Origin: Escherichia coli
GTDB lineage: Bacteria > Pseudomonadota > Gammaproteobacteria > Enterobacterales > Enterobacteriaceae
NCBI RefSeq assembly: GCF_024700885.2
Contig: NZ_CP117016.1
DNA: 64,000 nucleotides
Strand: one strand, 5' to 3'
The position numbers and the translations under genes were made by a program. Under the pieces are notes generated by a model. It ran no database searches, had not been told where the DNA came from, and saw only the letters and a list, made by a program, of their open reading frames with translations. Positions 18,859 to 56,619 of the stretch are shown piece after piece. Within the stretch, counting starts at the first letter, position 1. Every line of letters starts with the position of its first letter.

Positions 18859-19034
18859 GCTGTGTTCCTTATTTGGACCATACAGAGAGAAAAACCGGTA
18901 CAGATGAGGCTAAAAAACCGGATGCAGATGCTGTTTTAACCTGTCTGTATGTTAAATAAAACTAATATTTGCATCTGTATTGTGAACTGCCAGAAGGCGG
19001 ATGATGAAGCCTCTGAAAGATGAGGAGGCAGCAG

Positions 19035-19199
19035 ATGGAATTTCACGAAAACAAAGCTAAAGCACCGTTTATTGGACTTGTGCAACTCTGGCAGGCAGTG
19101 AGGCGTTGGCGGCGGCAAATGCAGGCCCGGCGGGTGTTACAGCAGATGAGTGATGAGCGGTTGAGGGATATTGGGTTACGCAGGGAGGATGTGGAGTGA
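19035..19199 (+). CDS. yjiS: DUF1127 small protein YjiS (54 aa)
   Basis: Hand-translated ORF MEFHENKAKAPFIGLVQLWQAVRRWRRQMQARRVLQQMSDERLRDIGLRREDVE; below the ORF-track size cut-off. Confidence 0.7.
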   Translation: MEFHENKAKAPFIGLVQLWQAVRRWRRQMQARRVLQQMSDERLRDIGLRREDVE

Positions 19200-19555
19200 A
19201 CTATGGGCGGCGTGTTGGCAAATGCTGCCTGTCTGCATTCAAAATTGCTACAAAATCCAACCATAAAAGTCGTTTACAACATATTTTTCTGATTTACATA
19301 CAGATAATGACCTGAGCTGTCTCACTGGGGGTCATCATCTATGCGTCCGGGGGGCTGTCACAAAATGGAAAAGGAATAGAACAAAATCATCAGCGGTGAA
19401 TAAAGCGATTCGTTTTAGATCACATTAATGAAATTTTTGTATCAAAAATTAGTTATCGCGCTCACAGTTCATAATGAAACAATTCTCTGCAAATAGATAA
19501 CCGAAGCTTCGTTGCTAGTATCAATTCGCTAATTATACACCTGCCAGAGGATACA

Positions 19556-22096: not shown

Positions 22097-22173
22097 TTAA
22101 GCCCGAAAGCCCTCATATTCTGGAGGAATATGAGGGTGATAAAGTCTCAGGTATTGTGATGTTGGAGGGCTGG

Positions 22174-23130
22174 TTACTTTTTGAGTCCCGCAAACGCTGC
22201 CCGAATCTCTTCCTCCGGCAACTGAATCCCGATAAACACCATTGTGCTATGCGGTTTTTCATCGCCCCACGGGCGGTCCCAGTCGGCGCTGTAGAGGCGC
22301 TGGACGCCCTGGAACAGCAGGCGGTTAGGTTCGCCGTCAATCCACAGCATCCCTTTGTAACGCAGCAGTTTATCCGCCGATTCCAGCAGCAGGTTTTCCA
22401 TCACGCGGGAAACTTCGCTGATATCTACCGGGTAATCCAGTTCCACCACAATCGACGAAATATCGTTTTGTTTATCCGCGATAAAGTGGAAACGCGGTTT
22501 GGTACTGACGACGTTCTCTTCCAGCATAAAACCGTTGGTATTGAACAGCAGGGCCAGGTCGATGTCGCCGTGAGTGACGGTGTAGACCGGCGCGCGGGCG
22601 TTGATGCGTGCCAGGCGTTCACGCAGTTTTTCTGCTTCGCCTGCGACGTCGGTTTTAGTCAGCAGAATACGGTCAGCGTAGCCCACCTGGGACTGGGCGA
22701 TGGTGAACTGGTTCATCTGCTCATCGGCATGTACCGCATCCACCAGCGCAATCACGCCGTCCAGCAGGTAGCGCTGGCATAAAATCTCATGGGAGAAAAA
22801 GGTCTGAATAATCGGGCCGGGATCGGCCATGCCGGTGCATTCAATGACCAGACGGTCGAACTGAATATTGCCCTTGTCGAGATTGTCCAGCAGGTCGAGT
22901 AGTGCGTCTTCCAGCTCGTTGGAGCGCGAACAGCAGATGCAGCCGTTGGTCAGCGTTTTGATCTGCGTGGCGCGATCACCAATCAATTGATCATCAACGG
23001 AGACTTCGCCGAATTCGTTTTCAATCACGGCAATCTTGTAGCCGTGTTGTTCGTTAAGAATATGGCGCAGCAGGGTGGTTTTGCCCGCGCCTAAAAAACC
23101 GGTGAGTAGGGTAACTGCAATCGGGTTCAT
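22174..23130 (-). CDS. yjiA: CobW/P47K-family GTPase YjiA
   Basis: Walker A GFLGAGKTT; ORF runs to 23214, but MNPIAVTLL (23130) gives the expected 318 aa. Confidence 0.85.
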   Translation of the reverse strand: MNPIAVTLLTGFLGAGKTTLLRHILNEQHGYKIAVIENEFGEVSVDDQLIGDRATQIKTLTNGCICCSRSNELEDALLDLLDNLDKGNIQFDRLVIECTGMADPGPIIQTFFSHEILCQRYLLDGVIALVDAVHADEQMNQFTIAQSQVGYADRILLTKTDVAGEAEKLRERLARINARAPVYTVTHGDIDLALLFNTNGFMLEENVVSTKPRFHFIADKQNDISSIVVELDYPVDISEVSRVMENLLLESADKLLRYKGMLWIDGEPNRLLFQGVQRLYSADWDRPWGDEKPHSTMVFIGIQLPEEEIRAAFAGLKK

Positions 23131-23393: not shown

Positions 23394-25544
23394 TTAGTGG
23401 TGCGAAGAGATCTTCACGCCGCCTTCCGGGATTGGAACGTACGGTGTTTCTTTGTCAGTACGTTTGTCGCTGTTACGCACCTTCAGCCAGGTTTTGAAAC
23501 CGTAGAAGATGATGCTGTACACCACAATCAGGAACAGAATACTCAGACCTGCGTTGGTGTAGTTGTTCACAATGATGTGGTTCATGTTGGCAATCTGCTG
23601 CGCCGTCAGGTCAGTACCGTTAGCAATCTTCTCTTTGTACTGGCTTGCCATGTAGAAGAAGCCTTCCATCTGCGGGTTGGTGCTGAACAGTTTCAGGCCC
23701 AGCGCCCAGGTGGTGCAGATAAGCAGCCATACAGCCGGAACAACAGTTACCCAGATGTATTGGGTGCGCTTCATCTTAATCAGCACAACGGTACCCAGTA
23801 CCAGCGCCACGGCTGCCAGCATCTGGTTGGAGATACCGAACAGCGGCCACAGGCTCTTAACGCCGCCCAGCGGATCGACCACGCCCTGATACAGCAGGTA
23901 GCCCCACAGACCCACACAGCCCGCAGTACCGATGATACCAGCAACCAGAGAGTCGGTTTTTTTCAGGAACGGGATGAAGTTACCCAGCAGGTCTTGCAGC
24001 ATAAAGCGGCCAGAACGGGTACCGGCATCCAGCGCGGTCAGGATGAACAGGGCTTCGAACAGAATACCGAAGTGATACCAGAAGCCCATGTCAGCCATCG
24101 GCAGCACTTTGTGGAACACGTGAGCGATACCTACCGCCAGTGTCGGCGCACCACCTGCACGGTTCAGGACAGAAGGCTCACCAATGTCTTTCGCGGTTTG
24201 CAGGATCTGCTCTGGCGAAATCACGAAGCCCCAGGAGCTGACGGTCGCCGCCGCGTGTGCGGTAACGTCTTTCAACTGCGCCATGATGATCGGCGCGTTC
24301 TCGCCACCCATTTCATGCAGGTTAGGCATGGTGATGCCAAGGCCCGCAGGCGGGGTGTTCATCGCGAAGTAAAGACCCGGTTCGATGATGGACGCTGCAA
24401 CCAGCGCCATAATCGCCACGAAGGACTCCATCAGCATTGCGCCGTAGCCAATGAAACGCGCGTCGGTTTCGTTAGCCAGCAGTTTCGGCGTCGTACCGGA
24501 AGAGATCAGTGCGTGGAAGCCAGATACCGCACCACAGGCGATGGTGATGAACAGGAACGGGAACAGAGCGCCTTTCCACAGCGGGCCAGTACCGTCAATG
24601 TACTGGGTCATCGCAGGCATTTTCAGTTCCGGGTTCAGCACCACGATACCCAGCGCCAGGCCGACGATAACACCGATTTTCAGGAAGGTTGCCAGATAGT
24701 CGCGCGGTGCGAGGATCAGCCACACCGGCAGCAGTGCGGAAACAAACGCATAGCCAATCAGCGCGAAGGTAATGGTGGTGTCTTTAAAGGTCAGTGCCGG
24801 ACCCCAGTACGGATCGTGAGCAATCACGCCACCGAAGTAGATAGAGGCAACCAGCAGCACGATACCAATGACAGAGACTTCACCCACACGCCCCGGACGG
24901 ATAAAGCGCATGTAGATACCCATAAACAGCGCAATTGGTACGGTTGAGCAAACGGTGAAGACACCCCACGGACTTTCGGCCAGGGCTTTAACCACAATCA
25001 GCGCCAGAACGGCGAGGATGATGATCATGATTAAGAAACAGCCAAACAGCGCGATAGTCCCCGGTACTGGTCCCATCTCTTCTTTGATCATCTCACCGAG
25101 AGATGCGCCGTTACGGCGAGAGGAGATAAACAGCACCATAAAGTCCTGAACCGCACCGGCCAGTACTACCCCCGCCAGCAGCCACAGCGTGCCAGGCAGG
25201 TAGCCCATCTGCGCGGCGAGCACCGGACCCACCAGCGGACCAGCACCGGCGATAGCGGCGAAGTGGTGACCAAACAACACGTAACGGTTGGTCGGAACGT
25301 AGTTCAGACCGTCGTTGTTAATAACCGCAGGCGTCGCGCGCGTGGGGTCGAGTTTCATCACCTTCTGGGCGATGTACAGACTGTAGTAGCGATACGCCAC
25401 CAGATACACCGACACAGAGGCGACCACGATCCACAGGGCGCTGACGTGCTCCCCCCGACGTAATGCAACTACCGCGAGGCAGAATGCACCGATGATTCCG
25501 AGAATCACCCAGGGTATGTGCTTGAATAGTTTTTTCGTATCCAT
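23394..25544 (-). CDS. btsT: Pyruvate/proton symporter BtsT (CstA family)
   Basis: Polytopic membrane protein; start at MDTKKLFKHIPW gives 716 aa; synteny. Confidence 0.85.
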   Translation of the reverse strand: MDTKKLFKHIPWVILGIIGAFCLAVVALRRGEHVSALWIVVASVSVYLVAYRYYSLYIAQKVMKLDPTRATPAVINNDGLNYVPTNRYVLFGHHFAAIAGAGPLVGPVLAAQMGYLPGTLWLLAGVVLAGAVQDFMVLFISSRRNGASLGEMIKEEMGPVPGTIALFGCFLIMIIILAVLALIVVKALAESPWGVFTVCSTVPIALFMGIYMRFIRPGRVGEVSVIGIVLLVASIYFGGVIAHDPYWGPALTFKDTTITFALIGYAFVSALLPVWLILAPRDYLATFLKIGVIVGLALGIVVLNPELKMPAMTQYIDGTGPLWKGALFPFLFITIACGAVSGFHALISSGTTPKLLANETDARFIGYGAMLMESFVAIMALVAASIIEPGLYFAMNTPPAGLGITMPNLHEMGGENAPIIMAQLKDVTAHAAATVSSWGFVISPEQILQTAKDIGEPSVLNRAGGAPTLAVGIAHVFHKVLPMADMGFWYHFGILFEALFILTALDAGTRSGRFMLQDLLGNFIPFLKKTDSLVAGIIGTAGCVGLWGYLLYQGVVDPLGGVKSLWPLFGISNQMLAAVALVLGTVVLIKMKRTQYIWVTVVPAVWLLICTTWALGLKLFSTNPQMEGFFYMASQYKEKIANGTDLTAQQIANMNHIIVNNYTNAGLSILFLIVVYSIIFYGFKTWLKVRNSDKRTDKETPYVPIPEGGVKISSHH

Positions 25545-25936
25545 AGTAAAACCTGGCATTTTACTCGTCGTCTTTTGGCTTACAGGTGCGGCAGCTGCGT
25601 TCGTTCACCTCTGTCACTTACTGTTGTAAGCTCCCGGGGATTCACTCACTTGCTGCCTTCCTGCAAACCAAAATCCATAGAGTAATTTGTTAATCATAGG
25701 CCGAAGCCGTTCTAGGTTTGCGTTGCGTTTGAGGAGGTAAATTGACCGCTATCCTGCAGTGATGTTGCCAGAGATACGCGCGCGTAAAGTAAGGTAAATA
25801 ACTGAGTGGTTATTTTAGGGATGTAAGCGGTCAGGAATGGCGGTGAGCGGTTGGGCAAGAATTATTCATCGGGTGGATATGTGATTGAGATCACAATAAA
25901 AATGCCCCTTCGACGAATGCGTGAAGGGGCTGGAGC

Positions 25937-26449
25937 TTAAATCGCAGCTTCCATTTCCAGCATCACCGGATGGAAACGGCGTTTAAAGTAGATAAGTCCG
26001 TGACCTTCTGCACTGAGGATGATGTTTTTAATCTCCACCAGATACACCAGATGTGTGCCAATTGCCTGCACATCGCGGATCTCACCTTCAAGACTGGCTA
26101 GCGAACCTTTTAGCACCGGCTGCGCCAGCGGACCTTTTTGCCAGCATGAGAGGCTAAAACGCTCTTCCATCGCCATGCCTGTCATGCCTGCGAAGTGGCG
26201 TGCCATCAGTTCCTGCTCATGGTTGAGGACGTTGACGCACAACTTGCCGTTGCCCTGAAAAACCGGGTTCATCGCACTGTTGGCGTTAATGCACACCATC
26301 AGCGACGGTGGTGTATCCGTGACCGAGCAGACGGCCGTTGCCGTAATCCCGCATTGTCCGGCGTCGCCCTCGGTGGTGATAATATTTACCGCTGCCGACA
26401 GGCTGGCCATCGCGTCACGAAAGCGCAGGCGTTGTTCATCTAATTGCAT
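25937..26449 (-). CDS. hpaC: 4-hydroxyphenylacetate 3-monooxygenase, flavin reductase component
   Basis: 170-aa protein downstream of hpaB; matches my recollection of HpaC. Confidence 0.85.
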   Translation of the reverse strand: MQLDEQRLRFRDAMASLSAAVNIITTEGDAGQCGITATAVCSVTDTPPSLMVCINANSAMNPVFQGNGKLCVNVLNHEQELMARHFAGMTGMAMEERFSLSCWQKGPLAQPVLKGSLASLEGEIRDVQAIGTHLVYLVEIKNIILSAEGHGLIYFKRRFHPVMLEMEAAI

Positions 26450-26466
26450 CTTAACCTCCTGCTGCG

Positions 26467-28029
26467 TTATTTCAGCAGCTTATCCAGCATGTTGATATCG
26501 TCGTTGTTGTGCAGGTGCGGCACAGTCCAGCCGTTCTGGTCGTATTCCGACAGGCAGCGATCAACCATCGCCATCATCTTGTCCATATTGCCGGAGCTTT
26601 GTGCCTGGCGCAGACACTGCAGGCGAATCTCATCCTGGCTACCGGAGTAGTTGATTTCATACAGTTCGTGACGACCACCAAATTCGCTGCCAATAGCATC
26701 CCACATCAGTTTGAGGATCTTGATGCGCTGGACGTGATCCATACCATTCGAACCGCGCACATACTTCGCCAGATACTGGTCGATCTGCGGATTGTTCAGG
26801 TCACGGGCACTGGAAGGAAGATAGATCAGGCCACTGGTAACGTTGCGTTCGATAATGTTTTTGATCTTCGCGTAGGCCATTGGTGCCAGTACGCGATAGG
26901 TTTGCAGTGCGGCATGATCCGGTAAATAAGCCCCGTTGACCCACGGCGTCGCTTCTGAGCACATCGAGTCACTCAATGCCCAGAAGGTGTTGCGCCACGC
27001 CACCACTTCACCGAGATCGGCCTGCACGCCCCGGAACTCCAGGGTGCCGGTACATTCAAGTGATTTTTTCAGCAGTGCCGTGATGAAATCGAGTTTCACT
27101 GCCAGGCGCACACAGGCTTGCAGCGGATACATACGGGCGAAACCGCCTTCCATCGTCCAGCGACGGCAGCGATCGAAATCGCGGTAGATCAACACGTTTT
27201 CCCACGGGATCAGTACGTTATCCATCACCAGAATCGCATCGTTCTCATCGAAGCGGCTGGAGAGCGGGTAGTCGTACGGCGAGCCGGTAGCACCCGCGAC
27301 CATCTCATAAGAGGCGCGGGAGATTAATTTCACGCCATCGGCATCCATTGGCGCAACGAACATCAGTGCGAAGTCCGGGTTTTCGCCCATCACTTGTGCC
27401 GAGCCGAAGCCAATCATGTTGTAGTGAGTCAGCGCCGAGTTGGTGGCAACCACTTTCGCACCGCTGACGATAATCCCGGCGTCAGTCTCTTTTTCCAGCT
27501 TGATGTAAACGTCTTTTACTTTATCGGTCGGCAAATGACGATCGATCGGTGGGTTAACAATCGCGTGGTTAAAGTAGAGGCCAGTTTCCTGAATACGGGT
27601 GTACCAGTTACGGGCGTTCTGCTCGAACTGACCGTAAAAGCCCGGATTCGCGCCCAGTGCGCAACCGAAAGCGGCTTTGTAGTCTGGGGTGCGGCCCATC
27701 CAGCCATAGCTCAGGCGTGACCACTCAGCGATGGCGTCGCGTTGCTGGCGCAGGTCGTCGGCACTTTTCGCCACGCGGAAGAATTTATGGGTATAGCCGC
27801 CGCTGCCGGTGTCGGTGTTCCAACACAGAGAGTCCTGCATCTCCGGTTTGTGCAGCGCGTCGTACAGTTGGGCAACAGACGCTGCCGCATTACGAAATGC
27901 CGGATGAGTGGTGACGTCTTTCACTCGCTCGCCATAGATATAGATCTCGCGACCATCCTGCAGGCTTTTCAGATACTCTTCCCCGGTGAACGGACGTTGG
28001 GTACTGGCGCGGAAATCTTCTGGTTTCAT
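26467..28029 (-). CDS. hpaB: 4-hydroxyphenylacetate 3-monooxygenase, oxygenase component
   Basis: 520 aa; recognised as HpaB. Confidence 0.9.
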   Translation of the reverse strand: MKPEDFRASTQRPFTGEEYLKSLQDGREIYIYGERVKDVTTHPAFRNAAASVAQLYDALHKPEMQDSLCWNTDTGSGGYTHKFFRVAKSADDLRQQRDAIAEWSRLSYGWMGRTPDYKAAFGCALGANPGFYGQFEQNARNWYTRIQETGLYFNHAIVNPPIDRHLPTDKVKDVYIKLEKETDAGIIVSGAKVVATNSALTHYNMIGFGSAQVMGENPDFALMFVAPMDADGVKLISRASYEMVAGATGSPYDYPLSSRFDENDAILVMDNVLIPWENVLIYRDFDRCRRWTMEGGFARMYPLQACVRLAVKLDFITALLKKSLECTGTLEFRGVQADLGEVVAWRNTFWALSDSMCSEATPWVNGAYLPDHAALQTYRVLAPMAYAKIKNIIERNVTSGLIYLPSSARDLNNPQIDQYLAKYVRGSNGMDHVQRIKILKLMWDAIGSEFGGRHELYEINYSGSQDEIRLQCLRQAQSSGNMDKMMAMVDRCLSEYDQNGWTVPHLHNNDDINMLDKLLK

Positions 28030-28279
28030 GTCGACCTCTACAGTATTAATCGGAATACGATTGTTAATTTTGTGTTTTGTTTTTGTTATTCAATTGAAGC
28101 TTGCAGGGGCGATTACGGGAAGACACTTTTGGGACAATGGCTGGTACTTTTCAGGTCGGGTACGGTTTTGTGATCGAGGTCGCTTTTCGCGATTTTTAAC
28201 GTTACTAAATCCCCTTGCTCCAGGCGGAGAAAGGGGAATAGCAGGTGGTGCCTGGTTTCCCGTTAAGGCTAAGGGATTT

Positions 28280-29170
28280 TCACGTCACAGGTACTTTTTT
28301 GGCACGATAAGCACTGGGCGAGCAACCGACTAAACGATTAAAAAAGCGCGCAAAATAAGCCGGATCCTTAAAACCGAGTTGCCAGGCAATATTGTTCACG
28401 GCGTTATCAGAAAACAGCAGCAGCCGCTTGGCTTCTCGTAGCTGCCTGTCGAAAATCAACCGTTTTGGCGGACGGTTGGCAAAGCGGCGGCAGATGTCCG
28501 TGAGGCGTGATTCGGTGATATGCAGTTCGTTAGCGTAATCCGGTACTGTCCAGTGCTGATGAAAATGGCTTTCAATCAGCATATTAAAACGCTGGAACAG
28601 TTTTAATTCTCCGCGCATTCCGCTGGCGGCATGGTCGTCGAGTTTTGCGTTACGCAGCAGTAGGGTGAACACTGCCTGTGCCAGTAACGTCAGGGTGTGT
28701 TCCCGTCCAGGCAGTTGTTCCACCGATTCCCGCTCTATCAGTTGCCAATAGTGTTCCAGCGCCGCCAGTTCGTCGGGTTTATCTGCCAGTGACAGGCAAA
28801 TCCCCGGCAGGCCGAAGGTTTCCCGAGTGCCCGGATAAAGAACTTCCAGCAGGGGCCAGATCAGATCTTCCCGTACCGTCAACACATGACCGTCGGCGTC
28901 AGACTCCGTAATAAACGCATGAGGTACTGACGGCGGCGTCAGGACAAACAGGGGCGCTTCCACCGAGTAGCGATGATCGTCAAGCTGTAGCTCAATCTGT
29001 CCGCTATTGAGGAAATGCATCTGAAAGTACTGTTCGTGGCGATGTGGCAGCATATGGCGGCCAAAAAATGCCGCCATGCGGGCGAATGACTGATAATGCA
29101 CATCGTCCGTGCCCAGGCTTTCATCGTACTCTTTGCTGATATCAATATTGGCAATCTGACGGTCACACAT
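28280..29170 (-). CDS. hpaA: AraC-family activator of hpaBC
   Basis: C-terminal AraC-type HTH; cluster position. Confidence 0.85.
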   Translation of the reverse strand: MCDRQIANIDISKEYDESLGTDDVHYQSFARMAAFFGRHMLPHRHEQYFQMHFLNSGQIELQLDDHRYSVEAPLFVLTPPSVPHAFITESDADGHVLTVREDLIWPLLEVLYPGTRETFGLPGICLSLADKPDELAALEHYWQLIERESVEQLPGREHTLTLLAQAVFTLLLRNAKLDDHAASGMRGELKLFQRFNMLIESHFHQHWTVPDYANELHITESRLTDICRRFANRPPKRLIFDRQLREAKRLLLFSDNAVNNIAWQLGFKDPAYFARFFNRLVGCSPSAYRAKKVPVT

Positions 29171-29179
29171 CGTCGTTCC

Positions 29180-30556
29180 TTACGGGGTCGCTCGCGGACG
29201 GGAGGACTGCATTGGAATCGCCCAGATAATCCCCGCACCAATCACCAGCAGCGCGGCAACAAACCACAATCCACTGTTAAAGCTGCCGGTCAGATCTTTC
29301 AACCAGCCGATCATAAACGGACTTAACGCTGAACCAATGTTGCCTGTGGCGTTGATCACCGCAATACCGATCGCTCTTGCCCGCAGGCTGATGGACTGAT
29401 CCGGTGTTGTCCAGAAAATCGCCATTGCGCTGAATGATCCGGTCGAAGCCATAATGATCCCCAGCATCTGGAGCATGTTGTGATCAGTTGCCGAAGCCAG
29501 TAACCAACCAGCGGCAGCGAACAAATAAGGAAGGGCGGTGTGATGCCTTCGTTCCTGGCGGCGATCTGAGTGACGGCTCCAGTAGATCATCCCGAGAATG
29601 GTACAAATCTGCGGTACGGCGGCCAGCAGGCCGATGGTGATATTACTGCTGCCCTGATTAAAGCTTTGCAGGATCTGCGGTGTCCAGATGCTGATCGCAC
29701 TAAGTGTGTTGGTCAGGCAGAAATACGCCAGGGTATACATCATCACCACCGGAGTGAAGATCTCCCGCCACATGCTGCGTTGTTGCATGGCATGGTGGCT
29801 GATGGCTCCCTCAGGCTGAACCAGCGTCAGACGATCGTTATCCATCATCTCTTGCAGGCATTTTTTGTCTTCTTTCGTCAGCCACTTAGCTTTGTCCGGT
29901 GAGTCATCAAGCCAGAACCACACCATGACGCCGAGTAATACCGACGGGAAGCCTTCCAGCAAAAACAGCCACTGCCAGCCTTTTAATGCCATTACGCCAT
30001 CCAGCGACAAAATGTAGCCGGAAACGATAGAGCCCAGCGCTGTCGTTACCGGCATTGCCACCATAAACAAGGCGTTGGCACGGGCGCGGAAATAGGCCGG
30101 AAACCAGAAGGTTAAATACAGCAGAATGCCAGGCAGAAAGCCGGCTTCGGTAATGCCAACCAGTATACGCAGTACGTACAAGCTGGTGGGGCCAGTGGCA
30201 AACATGGTAGCAGTAGAGGCGATGCCCCAAAGCACCATGATGGTGGCGATCCAGCGCCGTGCACCGACAATACTCAGCATAATGTTGCTGGGAATGCCGA
30301 AGATGACATAAGCGGCGTAGAACAGGGTGGTGGCGAGGCCAAACATGGTGGCGCTCAGACCGAGGTCGCGTCCCATCGTGAGTCCGGCAAAGCCGATGTT
30401 GATGCGATCAAGGAACGAGAAGATAAACAGCACGAACAGAAAGACGATCAGGCGGCGAAACAGCTTCTTAATAACCGCCTGTTGTCCGGTAGTCAGCGCT
30501 TTATGCTGATTCGCCGGATCGATACTCTCCGGTATGGCAGGTGAGGTGTCGCTCAT
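29180..30556 (-). CDS. hpaX: 4-hydroxyphenylacetate MFS transporter
   Basis: 458-aa MFS protein; cluster position. Confidence 0.85.
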   Translation of the reverse strand: MSDTSPAIPESIDPANQHKALTTGQQAVIKKLFRRLIVFLFVLFIFSFLDRINIGFAGLTMGRDLGLSATMFGLATTLFYAAYVIFGIPSNIMLSIVGARRWIATIMVLWGIASTATMFATGPTSLYVLRILVGITEAGFLPGILLYLTFWFPAYFRARANALFMVAMPVTTALGSIVSGYILSLDGVMALKGWQWLFLLEGFPSVLLGVMVWFWLDDSPDKAKWLTKEDKKCLQEMMDNDRLTLVQPEGAISHHAMQQRSMWREIFTPVVMMYTLAYFCLTNTLSAISIWTPQILQSFNQGSSNITIGLLAAVPQICTILGMIYWSRHSDRRQERRHHTALPYLFAAAGWLLASATDHNMLQMLGIIMASTGSFSAMAIFWTTPDQSISLRARAIGIAVINATGNIGSALSPFMIGWLKDLTGSFNSGLWFVAALLVIGAGIIWAIPMQSSRPRATP

Positions 30557-30600
30557 TTTTCTTCCTCTAATGGGATTTTTGTAGGGTACGACAAGGTTTA

Positions 30601-30670
30601 TGGCGGATGCGGCGTAAACGCCTTATCCGGCTACAGTTTGGTACTGCTGTAAGCCGGATAAGCGCATTCA
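30601..30670. repeat. REP/BIME-like palindromic elements between hpaX and hpaI
   Basis: ggcggatgcggcgtaaacgccttatccggc and gccggataagcgc motifs read directly. Confidence 0.55.
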
Positions 30671-30673
30671 GCA

Positions 30674-31462
30674 TTAATACACGCCGGGCTTAACGGTCGT
30701 GGCCTGCGCGCCAAACCGTGCTGCCAACGCTTCGGCGGCGCGGGCGAGCAGGGTGGTGTCAACGCCGACGGCGACAAACAGCGCGCCCAGTTCCAGATAG
30801 CGTTTTGCCAGTTGCTCATTGGCGATCAGGATCCCCGGCGCTTTGCCCGCTTCGCGGATCTGCACGATCGCCTGCTCAATGGCGACCTGTACTTCCGGGT
30901 GCTGTGGATTACCGGCATAACCCATATCGGCGCTCAGATCCGCCGGGCCGATAAACACGCCGTCGACCCCTTCCACGTCCAGAATCTGCGGTAAGTTCTT
31001 CATTGCCTCACGCGTTTCGATCTGCACCAGCACGCACATTTGATCGTTGGCTTTTTGCAGGTAATCAGGAATGCGATTCCAGCGCGAGGCGCGAGCCAGC
31101 GCACTGCCCACACCGCGAATACCGGCGGGGGGATAACGGGTGGCGCGTACCGCTTCACGGGCTTCGTCGGCGTTTTGTACCATCGGCACCAGTAAGGTTT
31201 GTGTGCCGACGTCCAGCAGTTGTTTGATTTGCACCGGATCGTTCCACGACGGACGTACTACCGGCTGGCTGGGGTAGGGCGCAATCGCCTGTAGCTGGGT
31301 GAGCACAGTTTGCACGTTATTCGGCGCGTGCTCACCGTCGATCAATAACCAGTCGAATCCTGCTCCGGCCAGTAACTCTGCGCTGTAGCTGCTACTTAGC
31401 CCCAGCCATAATCCGATCTGCGGGCGGCCTGCTTTCAGCGCCGCTTTAAAACTGTTTTCCAT
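30674..31462 (-). CDS. hpaI: 2,4-dihydroxyhept-2-ene-1,7-dioate aldolase
   Basis: ORF extends to 31603; start placed at [20 protein letters not shown] to match the expected size. Confidence 0.85.
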
Positions 31463-31472
31463 CGTTCTCTCC

Positions 31473-32276
31473 TTAAACAAAGCGGCAGCTAATGGAGCCC
31501 ATGTTGCCGTAATCGACGTGGAAGGTGTCGCCCTTACGCGCCGGAACCGGGCGGGTAAACGAACCGCCGAGAATGATTTGCCCGGCTTCCAGTTGTACGT
31601 CATACGGTGCGAGTTTGTTCGCCAGCCAGGCCACGCCGTTTGCCGGGTGATTCAGCACGCCAGCGGCGACGCCGGTTTCTTCAATCACGCCATTGCGATA
31701 CATCAGGGCGGAGATCCAACGTAGATCCAACTCATCGGGCTTAATGGGACGACCACCGAGGATCACCCCGGCATTGGCGGCGTTATCAGAAATGGTGTCG
31801 AACACTTTACGCGGGCGCTGGGTTTCCGGATCGATGTTGTGGCAGCGAGCGTCGATCAGCTCCAGCGCCGGGATCACATAGTCCGTGGCGTTGTAGACGT
31901 CGAACAGCGTGCAGTTTGGCCCACGCAGCGGTTTTGCCAGCACGAAAGCCAGCTCCACTTCAATGCGCGGCACGATAAAGCGATCGGTCGGGATATCGCT
32001 GCCATCGTGGAAGAACATGTCATCCAGCAGGGCACCATAATCCGGCTCGCTGATTTGCGAGCTGGCCTGCATCGCTTTCGAGGTCAGGCCGATTTTGTGG
32101 CCTTTCAGCGTACGGCCTTCGGCAATTTTCAGGCGGACCCATTCGCGCTGTACGGCGTAGGCATCTTCGATGGTGATCTCCGGGTAATCCAGCGAGATCG
32201 CGCGGATCTGTTCACGCTGTTTTTCTGCCTGATCCAGACGCTGGGCGATCAGGGTGTGGGTGTGTTTATCGAACAT
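31473..32276 (-). CDS. hpaH: 2-oxo-hept-3-ene-1,7-dioate hydratase
   Basis: ORF to 32294; start at [15 protein letters not shown]; cluster position. Confidence 0.85.
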
Positions 32277-32343
32277 GGCGATATCCTGTGGCATTGCCGG
32301 ATGCGGCTGCGCCTTATCATCCGGCCTGGAAGCTGGTGCAAAT

Positions 32344-32724
32344 TTATTTAAACAACGCGTGTACGTTGTTCTGTTTGAAATTCAACGTCGGGTGCAGCTC
32401 TGCAATCTCAAATGAAAGCGCCAGGTAACGGCTCTCCATCAGTGAGGCGAAGTGCGTTTTAATCAGATCAAACAGCATTTCGCCCACTTTCTGACGGCTT
32501 TCCAGACTGCGCCCGCTGCCGATTTTTAGCGTCATATGCACAAAGGCGTAATCGTGCTTGCCATCAGCCATTTGCCAGGTATCGATCCAGTGTGCCCGGC
32601 TACGTATTCCCCCAAGCGGAAAAATCCCCGTCGCCGCCAGTGCGGTGTTAACACTGGCAAACAGCTCAGGTAAGCGGGCTTCTTGACGAATATTTTCAGT
32701 ACATTCCACGATAAAGTGCGGCAT
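32344..32724 (-). CDS. hpaF: 5-carboxymethyl-2-hydroxymuconate isomerase
   Basis: 126 aa beginning [12 protein letters not shown]; cluster position. Confidence 0.85.
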
Positions 32725-32733
32725 GGTGGTTCC

Positions 32734-33585
32734 TTACGCGGGAAGCGGGAAAACAGCGTTAACCTGACCAGTACCGGAGCTTGGGAACAGCTCGGTAATA
32801 AACTCCACCTTGCCGTCGTATTTATCCCAGCCGAGCATCCCCAGCAGCATCACCGTGTCGTGCATATTGCCTTCGCCGTAGCAGTAGTCGGCGTACTCCG
32901 GCAGCATATTGCAGAACTCTTTGAACTGGCCTTCGCGCCACAGCTTCACCACGCGCTCGTCCATCTGGCGGTCGAACTCGCGGGTGTAGCTGTTCATCCC
33001 TTCTTCTGCACGCTGATCGTCAATAAAGCGGTGCGATAACGAACCGCTGGCAAGGACCGCCACGGTACCGTCGTACTGTTCGATCGCTTTCAGAATCGCT
33101 TCGCCCAGCTTGCGGCTGTCGGCAAAATCGTGAACCGTGCAGAAAGCCGAAATGGAGACCACTTTGAAGTGCTTGTCTTCATTCATGTAGCGCATTGGCA
33201 CCAGCGTGCCGTATTCCAGTTTCAGGCTGGGAATATTGTGCGCTTTTGCCCGCACGCCGAGTTTTAAGGCTTCATCGGCAATAAGCTGCCCCAACTCCGG
33301 GTTGCCCTCGTAGTTGTAGGTCATGTCACGAATAAAATGCGGCAGCTCGTTACTGGTGTAGACGCCTTCAAAATGGTCTGCACAGTTGATGTGATAAGCA
33401 CTGTTGACCAGCCAGTGGGTATCGAAAACGATAATGGTATCGACGCCCATTTCCCGGCAACGCTTGCTGATCTCTTTATGCCCGTCGATCGCGCCCTGGC
33501 GGCAACCGTGGTTTTTCCCTGGCAGTTCAGAGAGATACATCGACGGTACGTGCGTGATCTTGGCGGCTAACGCTAACTTACCCAT
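32734..33585 (-). CDS. hpaD: 3,4-dihydroxyphenylacetate 2,3-dioxygenase
   Basis: 283 aa; cluster position. Confidence 0.9.
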   Translation of the reverse strand: MGKLALAAKITHVPSMYLSELPGKNHGCRQGAIDGHKEISKRCREMGVDTIIVFDTHWLVNSAYHINCADHFEGVYTSNELPHFIRDMTYNYEGNPELGQLIADEALKLGVRAKAHNIPSLKLEYGTLVPMRYMNEDKHFKVVSISAFCTVHDFADSRKLGEAILKAIEQYDGTVAVLASGSLSHRFIDDQRAEEGMNSYTREFDRQMDERVVKLWREGQFKEFCNMLPEYADYCYGEGNMHDTVMLLGMLGWDKYDGKVEFITELFPSSGTGQVNAVFPLPA

Positions 33586-33586
33586 A

Positions 33587-35053
33587 TCAGACTCCCCATT
33601 TCGGAATTGGATGGTCGCCCATGGAAATGCAGACGTTCTTCATTTCCGCGAACACTTCGAAGCTGTACTCACCGCCTTCACGCCCGGTGCCGGAGGCTTT
33701 TACGCCGCCAAACGGCTGGCGCAGGTCGCGCACGTTCTGGGTGTTGACGAACACCATGCCTGCTTCAATGCCACGCGCCAGGCGTAACACTTTGCTGACA
33801 TCCTGCGTCCAGATGTACGATGCCAGGCCGTACTCCACGTCGTTTGCCAGGCGTAAGCCTTCGGCTTCGTCTTTAAACGGCAGCAGGCAGGCGACCGGCC
33901 CGAAAATCTCTTCCTGGGCGACGCGCATACGGTTATCTACGTCTGCCAGCACGGTTGGGCGCAGGAAGTTGCCGCCTTTCAGATGTGCAGGCAGGTCAGA
34001 CGGTTTATCCGGGCCGCCCGCCAGCAGGGTTGCGCCTTCTTCAATGCCGAGACGGATATAGCCAGAGACTTTTTCCCAGTGCTGCTGGCTGATAAGCGCC
34101 CCAACCTGGGTATTCGGATCGTTCGGATCGCCCACGCGCAGACGGTTGGCGCGTTCGGCAAAGCGTTTAACGAATTCCGGGTAGATGCTTTGCTGAATAA
34201 AGATGCGCGAACCGGCGGTGCAGCGCTCGCCGTTGATCGAGAAGATGGTGAACAGGGCAGCGTCCAGCGCGCGTTCAATATCGGCATCTTCAAAAATCAG
34301 CACCGGCGATTTACCGCCCAGTTCCATGGAGTATTTTTTCAGCCCGGCGTTTTTCATGATGTTGCGCCCGGTGGCCGTACCGCCGGTGAACGACACGGCA
34401 CGTACGTCATGATGACGAACCAGCGCATCGCCTGCGGTTGCGCCGTAGCCCTGTACCACGTTCAGCACGCCCGCCGGAATACCGGCTTCCAGCGCCAGCT
34501 CACCCAGGCGGTCAGCGGTCAGCGGGGAGAGTTCCGACATTTTCAACACCGCGGTATTGCCCAGCGCCAGACACGGCGCGACCTTCCATGTGGCGGTCAT
34601 AAACGGCACGTTCCACGGCGATACCAGCGCACAAACGCCTACCGGTTGCACCAGCGTGTAGTTGAGCATCTTGTCGTCAACCGGATAGGTCTTGCCGTTC
34701 ATCTGCTGGCAGACTTCCGCGAAAAATTCAAAGTTGTGAGAAGCGCGTGGGATCAACACATTTTTGGTCTGATGGATTGGCAGGCCCGTGTCAGCGGTTT
34801 CCATCGCGGCGATCTCAGGCACGTTCTGGTCGATCAGATCGCCCAGACGGCGCATCAGGCGCGCACGCTCTTTCATCGGCAGATTGGCCCATTTCGGGAA
34901 CGCCTCTTTCGCTGCCGCTACCGCCTGATTGATCTCCGCTTCACCGCCAGAGGCCACATCCGCCAGCACTTCACCCGTTGCCGGATTGGTGGTCTGGAAG
35001 TAGTCGTTACCTGCAACATTTTTGCCGTTGATCCAATGATTTACTTTTTTCAT
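33587..35053 (-). CDS. hpaE: 5-carboxymethyl-2-hydroxymuconate semialdehyde dehydrogenase
   Basis: 488-aa aldehyde dehydrogenase (ELGGKSP, catalytic-Cys motif region); cluster position. Confidence 0.9.
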   Translation of the reverse strand: MKKVNHWINGKNVAGNDYFQTTNPATGEVLADVASGGEAEINQAVAAAKEAFPKWANLPMKERARLMRRLGDLIDQNVPEIAAMETADTGLPIHQTKNVLIPRASHNFEFFAEVCQQMNGKTYPVDDKMLNYTLVQPVGVCALVSPWNVPFMTATWKVAPCLALGNTAVLKMSELSPLTADRLGELALEAGIPAGVLNVVQGYGATAGDALVRHHDVRAVSFTGGTATGRNIMKNAGLKKYSMELGGKSPVLIFEDADIERALDAALFTIFSINGERCTAGSRIFIQQSIYPEFVKRFAERANRLRVGDPNDPNTQVGALISQQHWEKVSGYIRLGIEEGATLLAGGPDKPSDLPAHLKGGNFLRPTVLADVDNRMRVAQEEIFGPVACLLPFKDEAEGLRLANDVEYGLASYIWTQDVSKVLRLARGIEAGMVFVNTQNVRDLRQPFGGVKASGTGREGGEYSFEVFAEMKNVCISMGDHPIPKWGV

Positions 35054-36339
35054 TTCGCTGTTTCCTCACTCACAATTCGGTTCACCAGGCGGCCCACGCC
35101 TTCTACTTCCACTACTACTTCATCGCCAGGCACCACGTCAGATAAGCCTTTTGGTGTGCCGGTGGCGATCATGTCGCCCGGATTCAGGGTCATAAATTCG
35201 CTTAAGTAGGCGATCAGGAAGGGCACGCTGAAGATCAGATCGGCGGTGGTGCCTTTCTGGCGTAACTCGCCGTTGACGAAGGTGCGAAGGGTCAGATTAT
35301 GCGGGTCCGGGATCGCCTCTTTCGGCACGATGGTTGAAAGCATCGGCGTCAGTCCGTCGCGGCTTTTTACCCGCAGGTTAGGGCGGTAGTAGTTTTCCAG
35401 ATAGTCGCGAATGGCGTAGTCGTTACACACGGTGTAGCCCGCGACATAATCCATAGCATCGGCTTCGCTGACGTTACGCGCCTGCTTGCCAATCACCACC
35501 ACCAGCTCCGCTTCGTAGTGCATATACTCAATATTGTTCGGGCGCACGGAGGTCTGGTTATCGCCAGTGAGGGTATTCGGCGCTTTCAGGAACACCAGCG
35601 GTTCTTCCGGTGGCTTAAATTCCAGTTCGCTGGCGTGGTCGGCGTAGTTCAGGCCGAGGGCAAACAGCGTGCCGTGCGGGTGTGGCTGCGTTGGGAAGCT
35701 CTTGCGCGTGGTCACTTCACGTTCGTCCACTACCGGATTTTCCAGTGGCGGGAAACCTTCAGCGAGAACACGAACGCGATCGCCTGGCTGTATTTCCACG
35801 CGCGCCTGTGGCGTGCCGAGCAGAATGGCATCGCCTGGATTCAGCGTGGCAAATTCGCTCAGAGCGCTCAGCAACTGCGCGGCATTACGTTGTAAATCGG
35901 CGGTGTTCCAGTGATCGGCAGGACGTCCGTTGATCTCGGTATAGATGGTCAGATTATCGACATTGCTGAGAGCCACGGTTTCGCCAATGGGGCAGAATCC
36001 ATCACGACATTTTGCTTTGATTGCCGGGCGGTAAAAGCTCTCTTCCGGCAGGCTGACGTCGTTAGCCAGCGCATATCCGGCGATGTACTCTGCTGCATCT
36101 TCTTCACGTACTTTCGTCGCCGTTTTTCCCACAATCAGCGCAACAGTCGCACCGCTCAGTACCTTTTCACCCTGTGGAAAGGGAATCGGTTCACCGCAAC
36201 CAATCACCGTATTGCGCGGTTTAATAAACCAGACCGCAGTTTTAGGCGGGGCTTTGTAGGGGGATTGCTGGAACGCTTCCTGCCATGCATCAAGTTGGCT
36301 GCGATGGTTCAACGCTACGGCGAAGATAGTGCCTTTCAT
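35050..36339 (-). CDS. hpaG: Bifunctional 5-oxopent-3-ene-1,2,5-tricarboxylate decarboxylase / 2-hydroxyhepta-2,4-diene-1,7-dioate isomerase (duplicated FAH-fold)
   Basis: Internally duplicated approx 430-aa protein; ORF 35050-36345, start likely MKGTIFAV. Confidence 0.85.
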   Translation of the reverse strand: MKGTIFAVALNHRSQLDAWQEAFQQSPYKAPPKTAVWFIKPRNTVIGCGEPIPFPQGEKVLSGATVALIVGKTATKVREEDAAEYIAGYALANDVSLPEESFYRPAIKAKCRDGFCPIGETVALSNVDNLTIYTEINGRPADHWNTADLQRNAAQLLSALSEFATLNPGDAILLGTPQARVEIQPGDRVRVLAEGFPPLENPVVDEREVTTRKSFPTQPHPHGTLFALGLNYADHASELEFKPPEEPLVFLKAPNTLTGDNQTSVRPNNIEYMHYEAELVVVIGKQARNVSEADAMDYVAGYTVCNDYAIRDYLENYYRPNLRVKSRDGLTPMLSTIVPKEAIPDPHNLTLRTFVNGELRQKGTTADLIFSVPFLIAYLSEFMTLNPGDMIATGTPKGLSDVVPGDEVVVEVEGVGRLVNRIVSEETAK

Positions 36340-36345
36340 TACCAC

Positions 36346-36610
36346 TCCTCGGATTCGATCATCTTAATCATTAATATGTTAATGATTACTTTTATTCCCG
36401 ATTGCGTAGTTTGGCAAAAGTAAGTGATGTAAATGTGATCTAATTAACAAACTATTTACATTTAAAGATAATAAAATATTAAATATCAGTAAGTTAACAA
36501 AACATGCTCAATTTTGATAAAATGAAGAATTGCAGGGGCAGCGCAGTCCCGGTAACGTGATGATTAACTGTTTCTATATTAATGATTTTGAATTTTTCAG
36601 GGGGAAGATA
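36346..36610. promoter_or_regulatory. Divergent hpaG / hpaR promoter-operator region
   Basis: AT-rich intergenic region between divergent hpaG operon and hpaR; function from known hpa cluster organisation; no site mapped here. Confidence 0.5.
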
Positions 36611-37057
36611 ATGCACGACTCACTAACCATTGCGTTGCTCCAGGCGCGAGAAGCGGCGATGAGTTATTTTCGCCCAATCGTTAAACGGCATAATTTGACA
36701 GAGCAACAGTGGCGCATCGTGCGTATTCTGGCGGAAAGCCCATCAATGGATTTTCACGATCTGGCGTATCGCGCCTGCATTTTGCGCCCAAGCCTGACCG
36801 GGATCCTCACGCGGATGGAACGCGACGGTTTAGTGTTGCGATTAAAGCCGATCAATGATCAGCGGAAGCTCTATATCTCGCTGACCAAAGAGGGGCAGGC
36901 CCTGTATAACCGCGCTCAGACACAGATTGAAGAAGCCTATCGGCAGATTGAAGCTCAGTTTACTGCCGAGAAAATGCAACAGTTAACCCATCTGTTAGAG
37001 GAATTTATTGCTCTGGGTAATTCCCGACAAGAAGACATTCCGGGCGATAATGAATAA
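36611..37057 (+). CDS. hpaR: MarR-family repressor of the hpa meta-cleavage operon
   Basis: 148-aa MarR-type protein; start at MHDSLTIALLQ, preceded by a ggggaag RBS-like motif. Confidence 0.85.
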   Translation: MHDSLTIALLQAREAAMSYFRPIVKRHNLTEQQWRIVRILAESPSMDFHDLAYRACILRPSLTGILTRMERDGLVLRLKPINDQRKLYISLTKEGQALYNRAQTQIEEAYRQIEAQFTAEKMQQLTHLLEEFIALGNSRQEDIPGDNE

Positions 37058-37175
37058 CTTTTTAGTATCTGATAACCAGCATCTGGTTTTTCCATGGATG
37101 GCGGGTTACACCTTTTCATAAAGTTTTTGCTTTCCAGGCCGAAAATCTTGCATCGGTCCACAGGAAAGAGAAACC

Positions 37176-38840
37176 ATGTTAAAACGTATCAAAATTGTGA
37201 CCAGCTTACTGCTGGTTTTGGCCGTTTTTGGCCTTTTACAACTGACATCAGGCGGTCTGTTCTTTAATGCCTTAAAGAATGACAAAGAAAATTTCACTGT
37301 TTTACAAACCATTCGCCAGCAGCAATCCACGCTGAATGGCAGCTGGGTCGCGTTGTTGCAGACGCGTAACACCCTCAACCGCGCGGGTATCCGCTACATG
37401 ATGGATCAGAATAATATTGGTAGCGGTTCAACCGTTGCTGAGCTGATGCAGAGTGCCAGTATTTCGCTGAAACAGGCGGAAAAAAACTGGGCGGATTACG
37501 AAGCGTTGCCGCGTGACCCGCGTCAGAGCACCGCCGCAGCGGCAGAGATCAAACGTAATTACGATATTTATCACAATGCGCTGGCGGAGCTGATCCAACT
37601 GTTAGGTGCAGGCAAAATCAACGAGTTCTTTGATCAGCCGACCCAGGGATATCAGGACGGTTTCGAGAAGCAGTATGTGGCTTACATGGAGCAAAACGAT
37701 CGGCTCTATGATATCGCCGTCAGCGATAATAATGCCTCCTACAGCCAGGCGATGTGGATTCTGGTGGGCGTGATGATCGTCGTACTGGCGGTCATCTTCG
37801 CCGTCTGGTTCGGTATTAAAGCCTCGTTGGTAGCGCCAATGAATCGCCTGATTGACAGCATTCGTCATATTGCAGGCGGCGATCTGGTGAAACCGATTGA
37901 GGTGGATGGCTCTAATGAGATGGGGCAACTGGCAGAGAGTTTGCGCCATATGCAGGGAGAGCTGATGCGTACCGTCGGTGATGTGCGCAACGGGGCCAAT
38001 GCCATTTATAGCGGTGCCAGCGAAATCGCTACCGGCAATAACGATCTCTCTTCGCGCACCGAGCAACAGGCCGCTTCGCTGGAAGAGACGGCAGCCAGCA
38101 TGGAGCAACTGACCGCAACGGTGAAACAGAACGCCGAGAATGCGCGCCAGGCCAGCCACCTGGCGTTAAGTGCTTCTGAAACGGCGCAACGCGGCGGCAA
38201 AGTGGTAGATAACGTGGTGCAGACTATGCGCGATATCTCCACCAGTTCGCAGAAAATCGCCGATATTATCAGCGTAATTGACGGTATTGCCTTCCAGACC
38301 AATATTCTGGCTTTGAACGCGGCGGTTGAAGCAGCGCGCGCGGGTGAGCAAGGGCGCGGTTTTGCGGTGGTCGCGGGCGAAGTGCGTAATCTGGCCCAGC
38401 GCAGCGCCCAGGCGGCTCGCGAAATTAAAAGCCTGATTGAAGACTCGGTGGGGAAAGTGGATGTTGACTCTACGCTGGTCGAAAGCGCCGGGGAAACAAT
38501 GGCGGAGATTGTCAGTGCTGTGACCCGCGTGACGGACATTATGGGCGAAATAGCTTCTGCTTCTGATGAGCAGAGCCGTGGTATCGATCAGGTTGGCTTA
38601 GCGGTCGCTGAGATGGACCGGGTAACTCAACAGAACGCTGCGCTGGTGGAAGAATCTGCCGCTGCCGCCGCCGCGCTGGAAGAGCAGGCCAGTCGCCTGA
38701 CCGAAGCTGTGGCAGTGTTCCGGATTCAGCAACAGCAGCAACATCAGCGTGAAACATCGGCTGTGGTAAAAACCGTGACGCCAGCTGCGCCGCGTAAAAT
38801 GGCCGTAGCAGATAGCGGGGAGAACTGGGAAACGTTTTAA
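37176..38840 (+). CDS. tsr: Methyl-accepting chemotaxis protein I (serine sensor)
   Basis: Two TM segments, HAMP, methylation helices, C-terminal NWETF pentapeptide. Confidence 0.9.
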
Positions 38841-56486: not shown

Positions 56487-56619
56487 AACTGACATTTTGC
56501 ATAGGCAGAACGCAATTATGCATATTGCGGTATAATCCCCTTCTTAAAACTGTAAGAACTGCTTGCTAATCCTTGCAGTTTTTGATTATAACATTTTTAT
56601 TTGTTTATTAGGATTTTTG

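Follow-up and report, generated by a model that had tools for sequence, protein, structure and literature searches.

The hpa cluster for 4-hydroxyphenylacetate breakdown between btsT and tsr in Escherichia coli: an intact cluster and probably an ancestral resident of its locus

Introduction

How did an eleven-gene catabolic cluster that K-12 does not have come to lie between btsT and tsr with no mobility gene beside it? This question is raised by the hpa cluster for the breakdown of 4-hydroxyphenylacetate (4-HPA) in a stretch of 64,000 nucleotides of Escherichia coli DNA (contig NZ_CP117016.1), which as a whole is called the window here. The window is the reverse complement of positions 4495569-4559568 of record NZ_CP117013.1 of E. 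coli MLI114, a strain from human stool in Mali, with 0 mismatches, and the gene coordinates given below combine a list of open reading frames (ORFs) with the RefSeq annotation of this identical record. That such a cluster of eleven genes exists, that it lies near pac and tsr and that K-12 is without it is already known from literature of 1996-2001, and K-12 has been reported to miss the complete eleven-gene cluster (PMC3032704). An earlier note, made from the sequence of the window alone, had described the cluster as inserted between btsT and tsr and had taken it, together with pac, to point to a W/B/C-type background. The comparisons outlined here lead to another view, namely that the hpa cluster is most probably an ancestral resident of this locus and that the K-12-type state arose by loss through segment replacement. 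The direction of the change, a loss and not a gain, is what we infer from these comparisons; that K-12 lost the cluster has been suggested before, with reference to Diaz 2001 (PMC7201708).

An intact cluster at the same place as in E. coli W and B

Each of the eleven hpa proteins matches its own hpa-specific NCBIfam equivalog model end to end with a score above the curated cut-off (ten proteins in one scan, HpaR in another), and none of the eleven translations contains an internal stop (Table 1). The cluster is flanked by btsT (23394-25544, minus strand) on one side and by tsr (37176-38840, plus strand) on the other. hpaR is divergently transcribed from hpaG-E-D-F-H-I, which is followed by hpaX-hpaA and then by hpaB-C. 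The six genes of the meta operon, hpaG-E-D-F-H-I, lie on one strand with gene spacings of -4 to 67 nt, all six with equivalog matches above cut-off. The span of 25937-37057 and the canonical order that the earlier note had given for the eleven genes are thus exact, the order being that of E. coli W. The two observations that the note had named as speaking against it, a different locus in W and missing or frameshifted genes, were not encountered, since the locus in W is the same and all eleven ORFs are of full length. The absence of the cluster from this site in K-12 is likewise confirmed, the btsT-tsr gap of MG1655 being 377 bp long. The region thus represents the canonical hpa cluster of E. 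coli for the meta-cleavage of homoprotocatechuate; it is intact and can be presumed to function.

E. coli W has the same eleven genes in the same order and orientation and in the same position as the window, pac-yjiA-yjiX-btsT-hpa-tsr(-lgoT). Seven of the eleven proteins are identical by WP accession, and the nucleotide identity of ~98.4% is ordinary divergence between lineages. In E. coli B REL606 the cluster is found at the same locus and in the same order, although hsd-mcr-mrr occupies the place where both the window and W have pac. The HpaC and HpaR proteins of the window carry the same WP accessions as those of W and B.

Borders without an insertion signature

One possible answer to the question is that a catabolic island was gained horizontally and inserted into a K-12-like empty btsT-tsr gap in an ancestor of W/B/C type. 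Such an island would agree with the presence and absence of the cluster among E. coli strains, with its GC content, which at 54.5% exceeds the window mean of 49.6%, and with the repetitive extragenic palindromic (REP) and enterobacterial repetitive intergenic consensus (ERIC) repeats in and beside it; in 1996, Prieto et al. reportedly treated the cluster as a mobilisable cassette. The borders, however, bear no sign of an insertion. As the earlier note had already seen, no integrase or transposase gene flanks the cluster, whose immediate neighbours are btsT and tsr. The nearest genes of this kind, an Rpn-family gene (16247-17203) at 9 kb and a prophage integrase (55269-56486) at 18 kb, belong to other units. 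The search for direct repeats at the junctions that the note had proposed revealed no target duplication: between 25820-25960 and 37030-37150 the longest direct word is 7 nt and the longest inverted word 8 nt, within the 6-8 nt obtained from shuffled sequences. No tRNA gene was found by ARAGORN in 18000-42000, and no RNA family was detected near the cluster with Rfam at gathering thresholds. Nor does the GC content change stepwise from the cluster to its immediate neighbours, as it is 56.1% in btsT, 54.3% in tsr and 54.2% in yjiA. In all, the marks by which genomic islands and mobile elements are recognised, i.e., an integrase at the border, a tRNA site or direct repeats, a compositional break and a variable location, are lacking from this locus.

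Alignment with strains that have an empty site shows near-identity up to ~25850 on the left, which resumes at ~37113-37115 on the right. Because the short allele has ~140 bp of its own between these points, the hpa state and the short state differ by replacement and not by a simple insertion or deletion. Of the two shared arms, the left one includes the control sites of btsT and the right one starts at the tsr promoter, so that the variable segment has the control region of a flanking gene on either side; its left border falls within 25824-25895 and its right border within 37113-37145.

Three alleles of the btsT-tsr gap

The frequency of the alleles was determined in 5426 complete E. coli genomes. 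In 2067 of them (38%) the cluster lies between btsT and tsr, as judged by at least 80% coverage of a btsT-hpa-tsr query, and hpaF was found anywhere in 2071, so the location of hpa is effectively fixed. Among 2077 hpaF matches in the E. coli genome collection, two are on plasmids. A second allele, typical of O157:H7, was found in 363 genomes (7%). Its gap of 1063 bp (positions 1546-2608 of locus L047) contains, in place of hpa, an AT-rich segment of 0.7 kb with an orphan ORF of 180 residues (WP_000934391.1) that matches no Pfam family. Hpa-type sequence can be followed in the left arm of this allele as far as 25896, with 86% identity, an indication that the O157-type allele derives from an hpa-bearing one. 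In the other genomes, ~55%, neither hpa nor the O157-type segment was matched. They presumably have the short allele of the K-12 type, whose ~140 bp in place of hpa are unrelated in sequence and which was seen directly in K-12, ATCC 25922 and three further strains of the sample. Each of the three alleles retains the control sites of btsT at its left end and the promoter of tsr at its right end. In a published survey, phylogroups A, B1 and C had hpaB whereas B2 and G did not (PMC12444784).

Remnants of hpa in the gap of the K-12 and O157 alleles were searched for by blastn with 7-nt words against 25400-37300, and only the shared flanks and chance words of 13-19 nt were recovered. The K-12 stretch AATGGCTTTTTAAATTCAGAG was considered as a relative of the sequence just after the hpaR stop codon; the resemblance is weak and not significant, and no claim is based on it.

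Linkage to btsT in other genera

The position of the cluster in other bacteria was determined by scanning one genome per species for exact peptide words of HpaX, with 10-kb flanks, followed by tblastn of the proteins of the window against the loci recovered. The arrangement hpaC-btsT-yjiX-yjiA is contiguous in Citrobacter (L006, L019), Enterobacter spp. (L008, L024), Pseudocitrobacter (L009, L010), Klebsiella (L011, L012, L014), Raoultella (L043) and Pseudenterobacter timonensis (L023). On the other side, tsr and hpaR are contiguous in a non-coli Escherichia representative (L016) and in Enterobacter sp. RIT418 (L024), in both of which the tsr promoter motif directly follows hpaR as it does in the window; RIT418 thus has the full tsr-hpa-btsT synteny. 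The clusters of Klebsiella, Citrobacter, Raoultella, Enterobacter and Pseudocitrobacter share genes, gene order and btsT-yjiX-yjiA linkage with the window, but they are only 76-89% identical to it, a full-length hpaG is in some of them not matched as a single gene, and the hpaR side differs. The genes next to hpaR include flavin adenine dinucleotide (FAD) oxidoreductases in Citrobacter L019, an amidohydrolase and an aldolase in Klebsiella L012, and a dehydrogenase and unknown ORFs in Pseudocitrobacter L009. Salmonella and Photorhabdus have a homologous meta operon, hpaX and hpaA without linkage to btsT, and in Salmonella enterica subsp. arizonae (L025) hpaBC adjoins hpaR in inverted orientation. 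In P. timonensis the hpaC-btsT spacer has grown to 592 nt through about eight tandem copies of a GC-rich palindromic unit of ~45 nt (…CCCCAAAGGGGAGAGGGGAATGATCGAGCCCGCTTTTCTC…), and single units related to this repeat are found at the same spot in Pseudocitrobacter and Klebsiella.

Divergence of the cluster follows that of its neighbours. Nucleotide identity between the window and the other genera is 76-89% for the hpa genes and 82-89% for btsT and yjiA, and between the window and W it is 97-99% for the cluster (with the exception of a patch in hpaF, 80%) and 97.4-99% for the flanks. The hpa genes of the non-coli Escherichia representative are 93-96% identical to those of the window. At the left border, a segment of 78 nt has a mean identity to the outgroups of 65% in the hpa allele, 58% in the K-12 allele and 57% in the O157 allele, and Klebsiella, Raoultella and Pseudocitrobacter have exactly the 16-nt CRP-like site that is found in the hpa allele.

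The recurrent linkage to btsT, the flank-like divergence and the lack of an island signature together favour ancestral residence. Insertion of a horizontally gained island into an empty gap, the reading that corresponds to the earlier note, appears by comparison very improbable, given that the linkage to btsT recurs with core-like divergence in six other genera, that the locus is fixed in essentially all carriers, that integrase, tRNA gene, junction repeat and compositional step relative to the immediate neighbours are missing, and that the empty allele with its ~140 bp speaks for replacement. Under ancestral residence, hpa would have been tied to btsT already before the split of the enterobacterial genera and would have diverged in step with its neighbours, the hpa segment would have been replaced in K-12-type strains, making the short allele the derived one, and homologous recombination in the core genes on either side would carry the gap alleles from one lineage to another. 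No mobility gene would be visible because the alleles would move in this way.

Several observations weigh against this reading. Conservation on the tsr side is limited to Escherichia and one Enterobacter. Outside E. coli, an HpaX match within Escherichia was obtained from one species representative only. E. albertii, E. fergusonii and other species representatives may be without the cluster, which would require either several losses or a gain on the stem of E. coli; absences in the genome scan are nonetheless uncertain because the scan relied on exact peptide words and one genome per species. Moreover, for the ~140 bp of the K-12 allele, from the second TGAGCGG repeat to the tsr promoter, no relative could be detected in the cluster, and the K-12 allele is, judging by its sequence, not the product of a clean deletion.

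Two classes of hpaF and exchange with Pseudocitrobacter

Within the cluster, a patch of ~0.4-0.6 kb with its core at 32319-32707, which covers hpaF and the hpaH-hpaF spacer, is only 76-80% identical between the window and W. Over the hpaF gene, the window is 99% identical to the B allele and 80% to the W allele. These alleles represent two classes that are ~20% apart and almost equally frequent among hpa-bearing E. coli (~52:48), the class of the window being present in 1083 genomes and the W class in 986. The closest non-coli relative of the window/B class is the Escherichia representative mentioned above, at 96-97%, and the W class is 93% identical to Pseudocitrobacter. The closest solved structure to HpaF is that of the 5-carboxymethyl-2-hydroxymuconate (CHM) isomerase of E. 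coli C (PDB 1OTG), whose chain aligns over residues 2-126. The hpc genes of E. coli C encode the same pathway, but on inspection of the alignment 1OTG follows the W-type allele and not that of the window.

A longer tract is shared with Pseudocitrobacter vendiensis (L009), in which ~5 kb of the meta operon, from hpaI to the middle of hpaG (30650-35890 of the window), are 91-99.7% identical to E. coli, whereas identity drops to 75-85% over the remainder of its cluster and the flanking sequence (75-87% for the remaining cluster and btsT). This tract is clearly the product of recombination between genera, and such exchange raises a further answer to the question of origin, in which E. coli gained the cluster by homologous allelic replacement, via flanking homology, from an enterobacterial genus with the btsT-hpa-tsr arrangement. 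Both the P. vendiensis tract and the W-type hpaF patch indicate that intergenus exchange occurs here, and Enterobacter sp. RIT418, with its full synteny, has the arrangement that a donor would need. However, none of the sampled genera comes nearer to E. coli across the complete cluster than it does across the flanks, the cluster beside tsr in the non-coli Escherichia is 94-96% identical as expected under vertical descent, and within E. coli the cluster is just as diverse as the flanks. We therefore regard gain by allelic replacement as distinctly improbable and retain ancestral residence. It can also be imagined that the hpa locus evolves by homologous patch exchange, within genera and across them, without mobile elements, that the two hpaF classes are held near 50:50 by a functional difference and that the three gap alleles are kept by selection and not by drift; this wider proposal is speculative and, in our opinion, rather unlikely to hold.

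Pathway, regulation and candidate control sites

In the pathway of E. coli W and C, HpaX mediates the import of 3- or 4-hydroxyphenylacetate (3-HPA or 4-HPA). The two-component flavin monooxygenase HpaBC converts the substrate to 3,4-dihydroxyphenylacetate (homoprotocatechuate), the ring of which is opened by HpaD, and the product is processed via HpaE, HpaF, HpaG, HpaH and HpaI to pyruvate and succinic semialdehyde. For the genes of the window, these enzymatic functions and the regulation described below are predictions from family membership and the literature. The AraC-type protein HpaA activates hpaBC, and the MarR-type protein HpaR represses the divergent hpaGEDFHI operon (PMC7201708; PMC7180172).

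Table 1. Genes, candidate control sites and repeats of the hpa locus in the window (gene products as predicted; bit scores are given against the curated cut-off of the model)
Feature	Position	Strand	Evidence
hpaC, flavin reductase component of 4-HPA 3-monooxygenase	25937-26449	-	NF012030, 385.6 bits vs 315, residues 1-170 of 170
hpaB, oxygenase component of 4-HPA 3-monooxygenase	26467-28029	-	TIGR02310, 1109.6 bits vs 885
hpaA, AraC-type activator of hpaBC	28280-29170	-	TIGR02297, 390 bits vs 275
hpaX, major facilitator superfamily (MFS) 4-HPA permease	29180-30556	-	TIGR02332, 892 bits vs 615
hpaI, 4-hydroxy-2-oxoheptanedioate aldolase	30674-31462	-	TIGR02311, 432 bits vs 369
hpaH, 2-oxo-hept-4-ene-1,7-dioate hydratase	31473-32276	-	TIGR02312, 465 bits vs 351
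hpaF, 5-carboxymethyl-2-hydroxymuconate isomerase, B-like allele class	32344-32724	-	NF011605, 263 bits vs 215
hpaD, homoprotocatechuate 2,3-dioxygenase	32734-33585	-	TIGR02298, 550 bits vs 316
hpaE, 5-carboxymethyl-2-hydroxymuconate semialdehyde (CHMS) dehydrogenase	33587-35053	-	TIGR02299, 739 bits vs 638
hpaG, bifunctional 5-oxopent-3-ene-1,2,5-tricarboxylate (OPET) decarboxylase and 2-hydroxyhepta-2,4-diene-1,7-dioate (HHDD) isomerase	35050-36339	-	NF011750, 978 bits vs 811, residues 1-429 of 429
hpaR, MarR-type repressor of the meta operon	36611-37057	+	TIGR02337, 201 bits vs 121
Candidate HpaR operator, perfect 10+10 palindrome TAATCATTAA-TATG-TTAATGATTA in the hpaG-hpaR divergent region, just upstream of hpaG	36365-36388		sequence
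Likely terminator, stem-loop followed by U-run CAUUUUUAUU, downstream of hpaC	25905-25929	-	fold -18 kcal/mol, z = -3.8
btsT control region, direct repeats TAAGCGGT (25824) and TGAGCGGT (25844) and CRP-like site TGTGATTGAGATCACA (25880-25895)	25824-25895		in all three alleles
Presumed sigma-28-type promoter of tsr, TAAAG-N15-GCCGAAAA	37119-37145	+	consensus match; right border region 37113-37145
REP pair in the hpaX-hpaI spacer, full REP and inverted, partly truncated REP	30602-30636 and 30647-30672		sequence read directly
REP-like unit in the hpaH-hpaF spacer, GCCGGATGCGGCTGCGCCTTATCATCCGGCCTGG	32296-32329		sequence
ERIC-like 123-nt repeat between the btsT start codon and the promoter region (BtsR/CRP control sites)	25562-25684		insertion/deletion vs other alleles

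Residue 379 of HpaB is an arginine in the window. Arg379 is associated with growth on both 3-HPA and 4-HPA, and B strains that use both isomers differ at this residue from those that use 4-HPA only (PMC7201708); E. coli B REL606 differs from the window in having Cys379 (PMC7201708). The strain of the window is therefore predicted to use both 3-HPA and 4-HPA.

The perfect palindrome just upstream of hpaG has a second copy in front of hpaR, 200 bp off (36564-36587) and 75% identical. Both copies have a TTAA-N4-TTAA core, which is also reported for HpaR sites that are called 'similar to E. coli W' (PMC7180172), and the first one is a candidate HpaR operator that fits this description.

The stem-loop downstream of hpaC is likely the intrinsic terminator of hpaBC. 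A consensus scan for promoters and terminators, the counts of which were not above shuffle expectation, missed it because its loop exceeds the limit of the scan, and folding was used instead. On the btsT side, the two direct repeats TAAGCGGT and TGAGCGGT are tentatively assigned here to BtsR by their match to the BtsR/YehT recognition repeat, and at the other border the tsr promoter is likewise tentatively assigned to the sigma-28 type by its match to the consensus. The CRP-like site lies at exactly the same distance from the btsT direct repeats in all alleles. It is known that CRP as well as BtsS/BtsR are needed for the expression of btsT (PMC7730263).

These features also bear on whether the cluster, though present, might have decayed in this strain, being silently pseudogenised or dead at the level of its regulation. 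No direct support for decay was found; the nearest to it is the example of REL606, where a single HpaB substitution can narrow the substrate range (PMC7201708). Eleven full-length ORFs above their equivalog cut-offs, seven proteins identical to those of W, the Arg379 of HpaB and an intact operator-like palindrome and terminators make decay barely credible.

REP and ERIC-like repeats

REP elements had been placed by the earlier note at 30601-30670, and a REP pair is indeed present in the hpaX-hpaI spacer, spanning 30602-30672. Two occurrences of a 25-nt REP core were counted in the window, where 0 are expected, and this recurrence supports the REP consensus used here, an extragenic imperfect palindrome of ~35 nt that is often found in inverted pairs. 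In the hpaGEDFHI transcript the pair is predicted to fold into a hairpin of -33.2 kcal/mol (z = -4.97). The REP-like unit in the hpaH-hpaF spacer had been missed in the earlier note. Compared with the window, E. coli W has one extra REP in each of these two spacers, so that its hpaH-hpaF spacer, with a second REP unit, is 110 nt long against 67 nt in the window and likewise 67 nt in B.

W and B also have the ERIC-like repeat next to btsT, which is missing from the K-12 and O157 alleles as well as from the other genera. It agrees with the description of ERIC elements as extragenic units of ~125 nt that have a central inverted repeat and are present in several copies per genome, and it matches the ERIC1R and ERIC2 primers at 20/22 and 18/22 positions, respectively. 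The repeat has a median of 9 copies per E. coli genome; a copy of at least 95% identity is found in 2056 genomes, which is near the number of hpa carriers, and this copy thus tracks the hpa haplotype.

Strain background

That hpa and pac together point to a W/B/C-type background, as the earlier note had put it, is not supported, as hpa is present in 38% and pac in 20% of the genomes and B has hpa without pac. In the window, pac (penicillin G acylase) is located at 19556-22096, in a region (17500-22190) between yjiS and yjiA where K-12 and B have the hsd-mcr-mrr immigration control region instead (PMC3032704). It was found in 1074 of the 5426 genomes, in 1071 of which it is linked to hpa, and therefore occurs almost only on the hpa-bearing haplotype. 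With at least 99% identity to the copy of the window in 1037 of the pac genomes, it is far less diverse than hpa and looks far younger. The combination of the cluster and pac is common in nature and says little about strain background. With a B-class hpaF together with pac, which B lacks, the strain is thus a mosaic of features, and no single laboratory strain shares all of them.

Neighbouring features

Among the yji genes of the window there is an inverse autotransporter gene, iatD (5.2 kb, 575-5815), and a gene for a pentapeptide-repeat protein of 758 residues (8381-10657), neither of which is in the corresponding stretch of E. coli W. Beside yjjG, at the other end, an insertion unrelated to hpa runs from 55269 to 64000. 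It comprises a tyrosine integrase (55269-56486), a CHAT-domain protein (56620-58752) and prophage-like genes (ymfK, ymfT, ymfL, yfdP-R) on to 64000, with coordinates taken from the identical MLI114 record.

Concluding remarks

Our analysis adds little that is new beyond the known cluster, which is a textbook accessory catabolic cluster. Its value lies in how the locus is read. The region need not count as an unexplained insertion, since a lack of mobility genes is to be expected for an old syntenic resident if the K-12 state is the derived one. Nor should hpa and pac serve as a marker of strain type. The dimorphism of hpaF and the exchange between E. coli and Pseudocitrobacter represent small leads for population genomics. 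The substrates of the pathway, 3-HPA and 4-HPA, are products of tyrosine and flavonoid breakdown in the gut.

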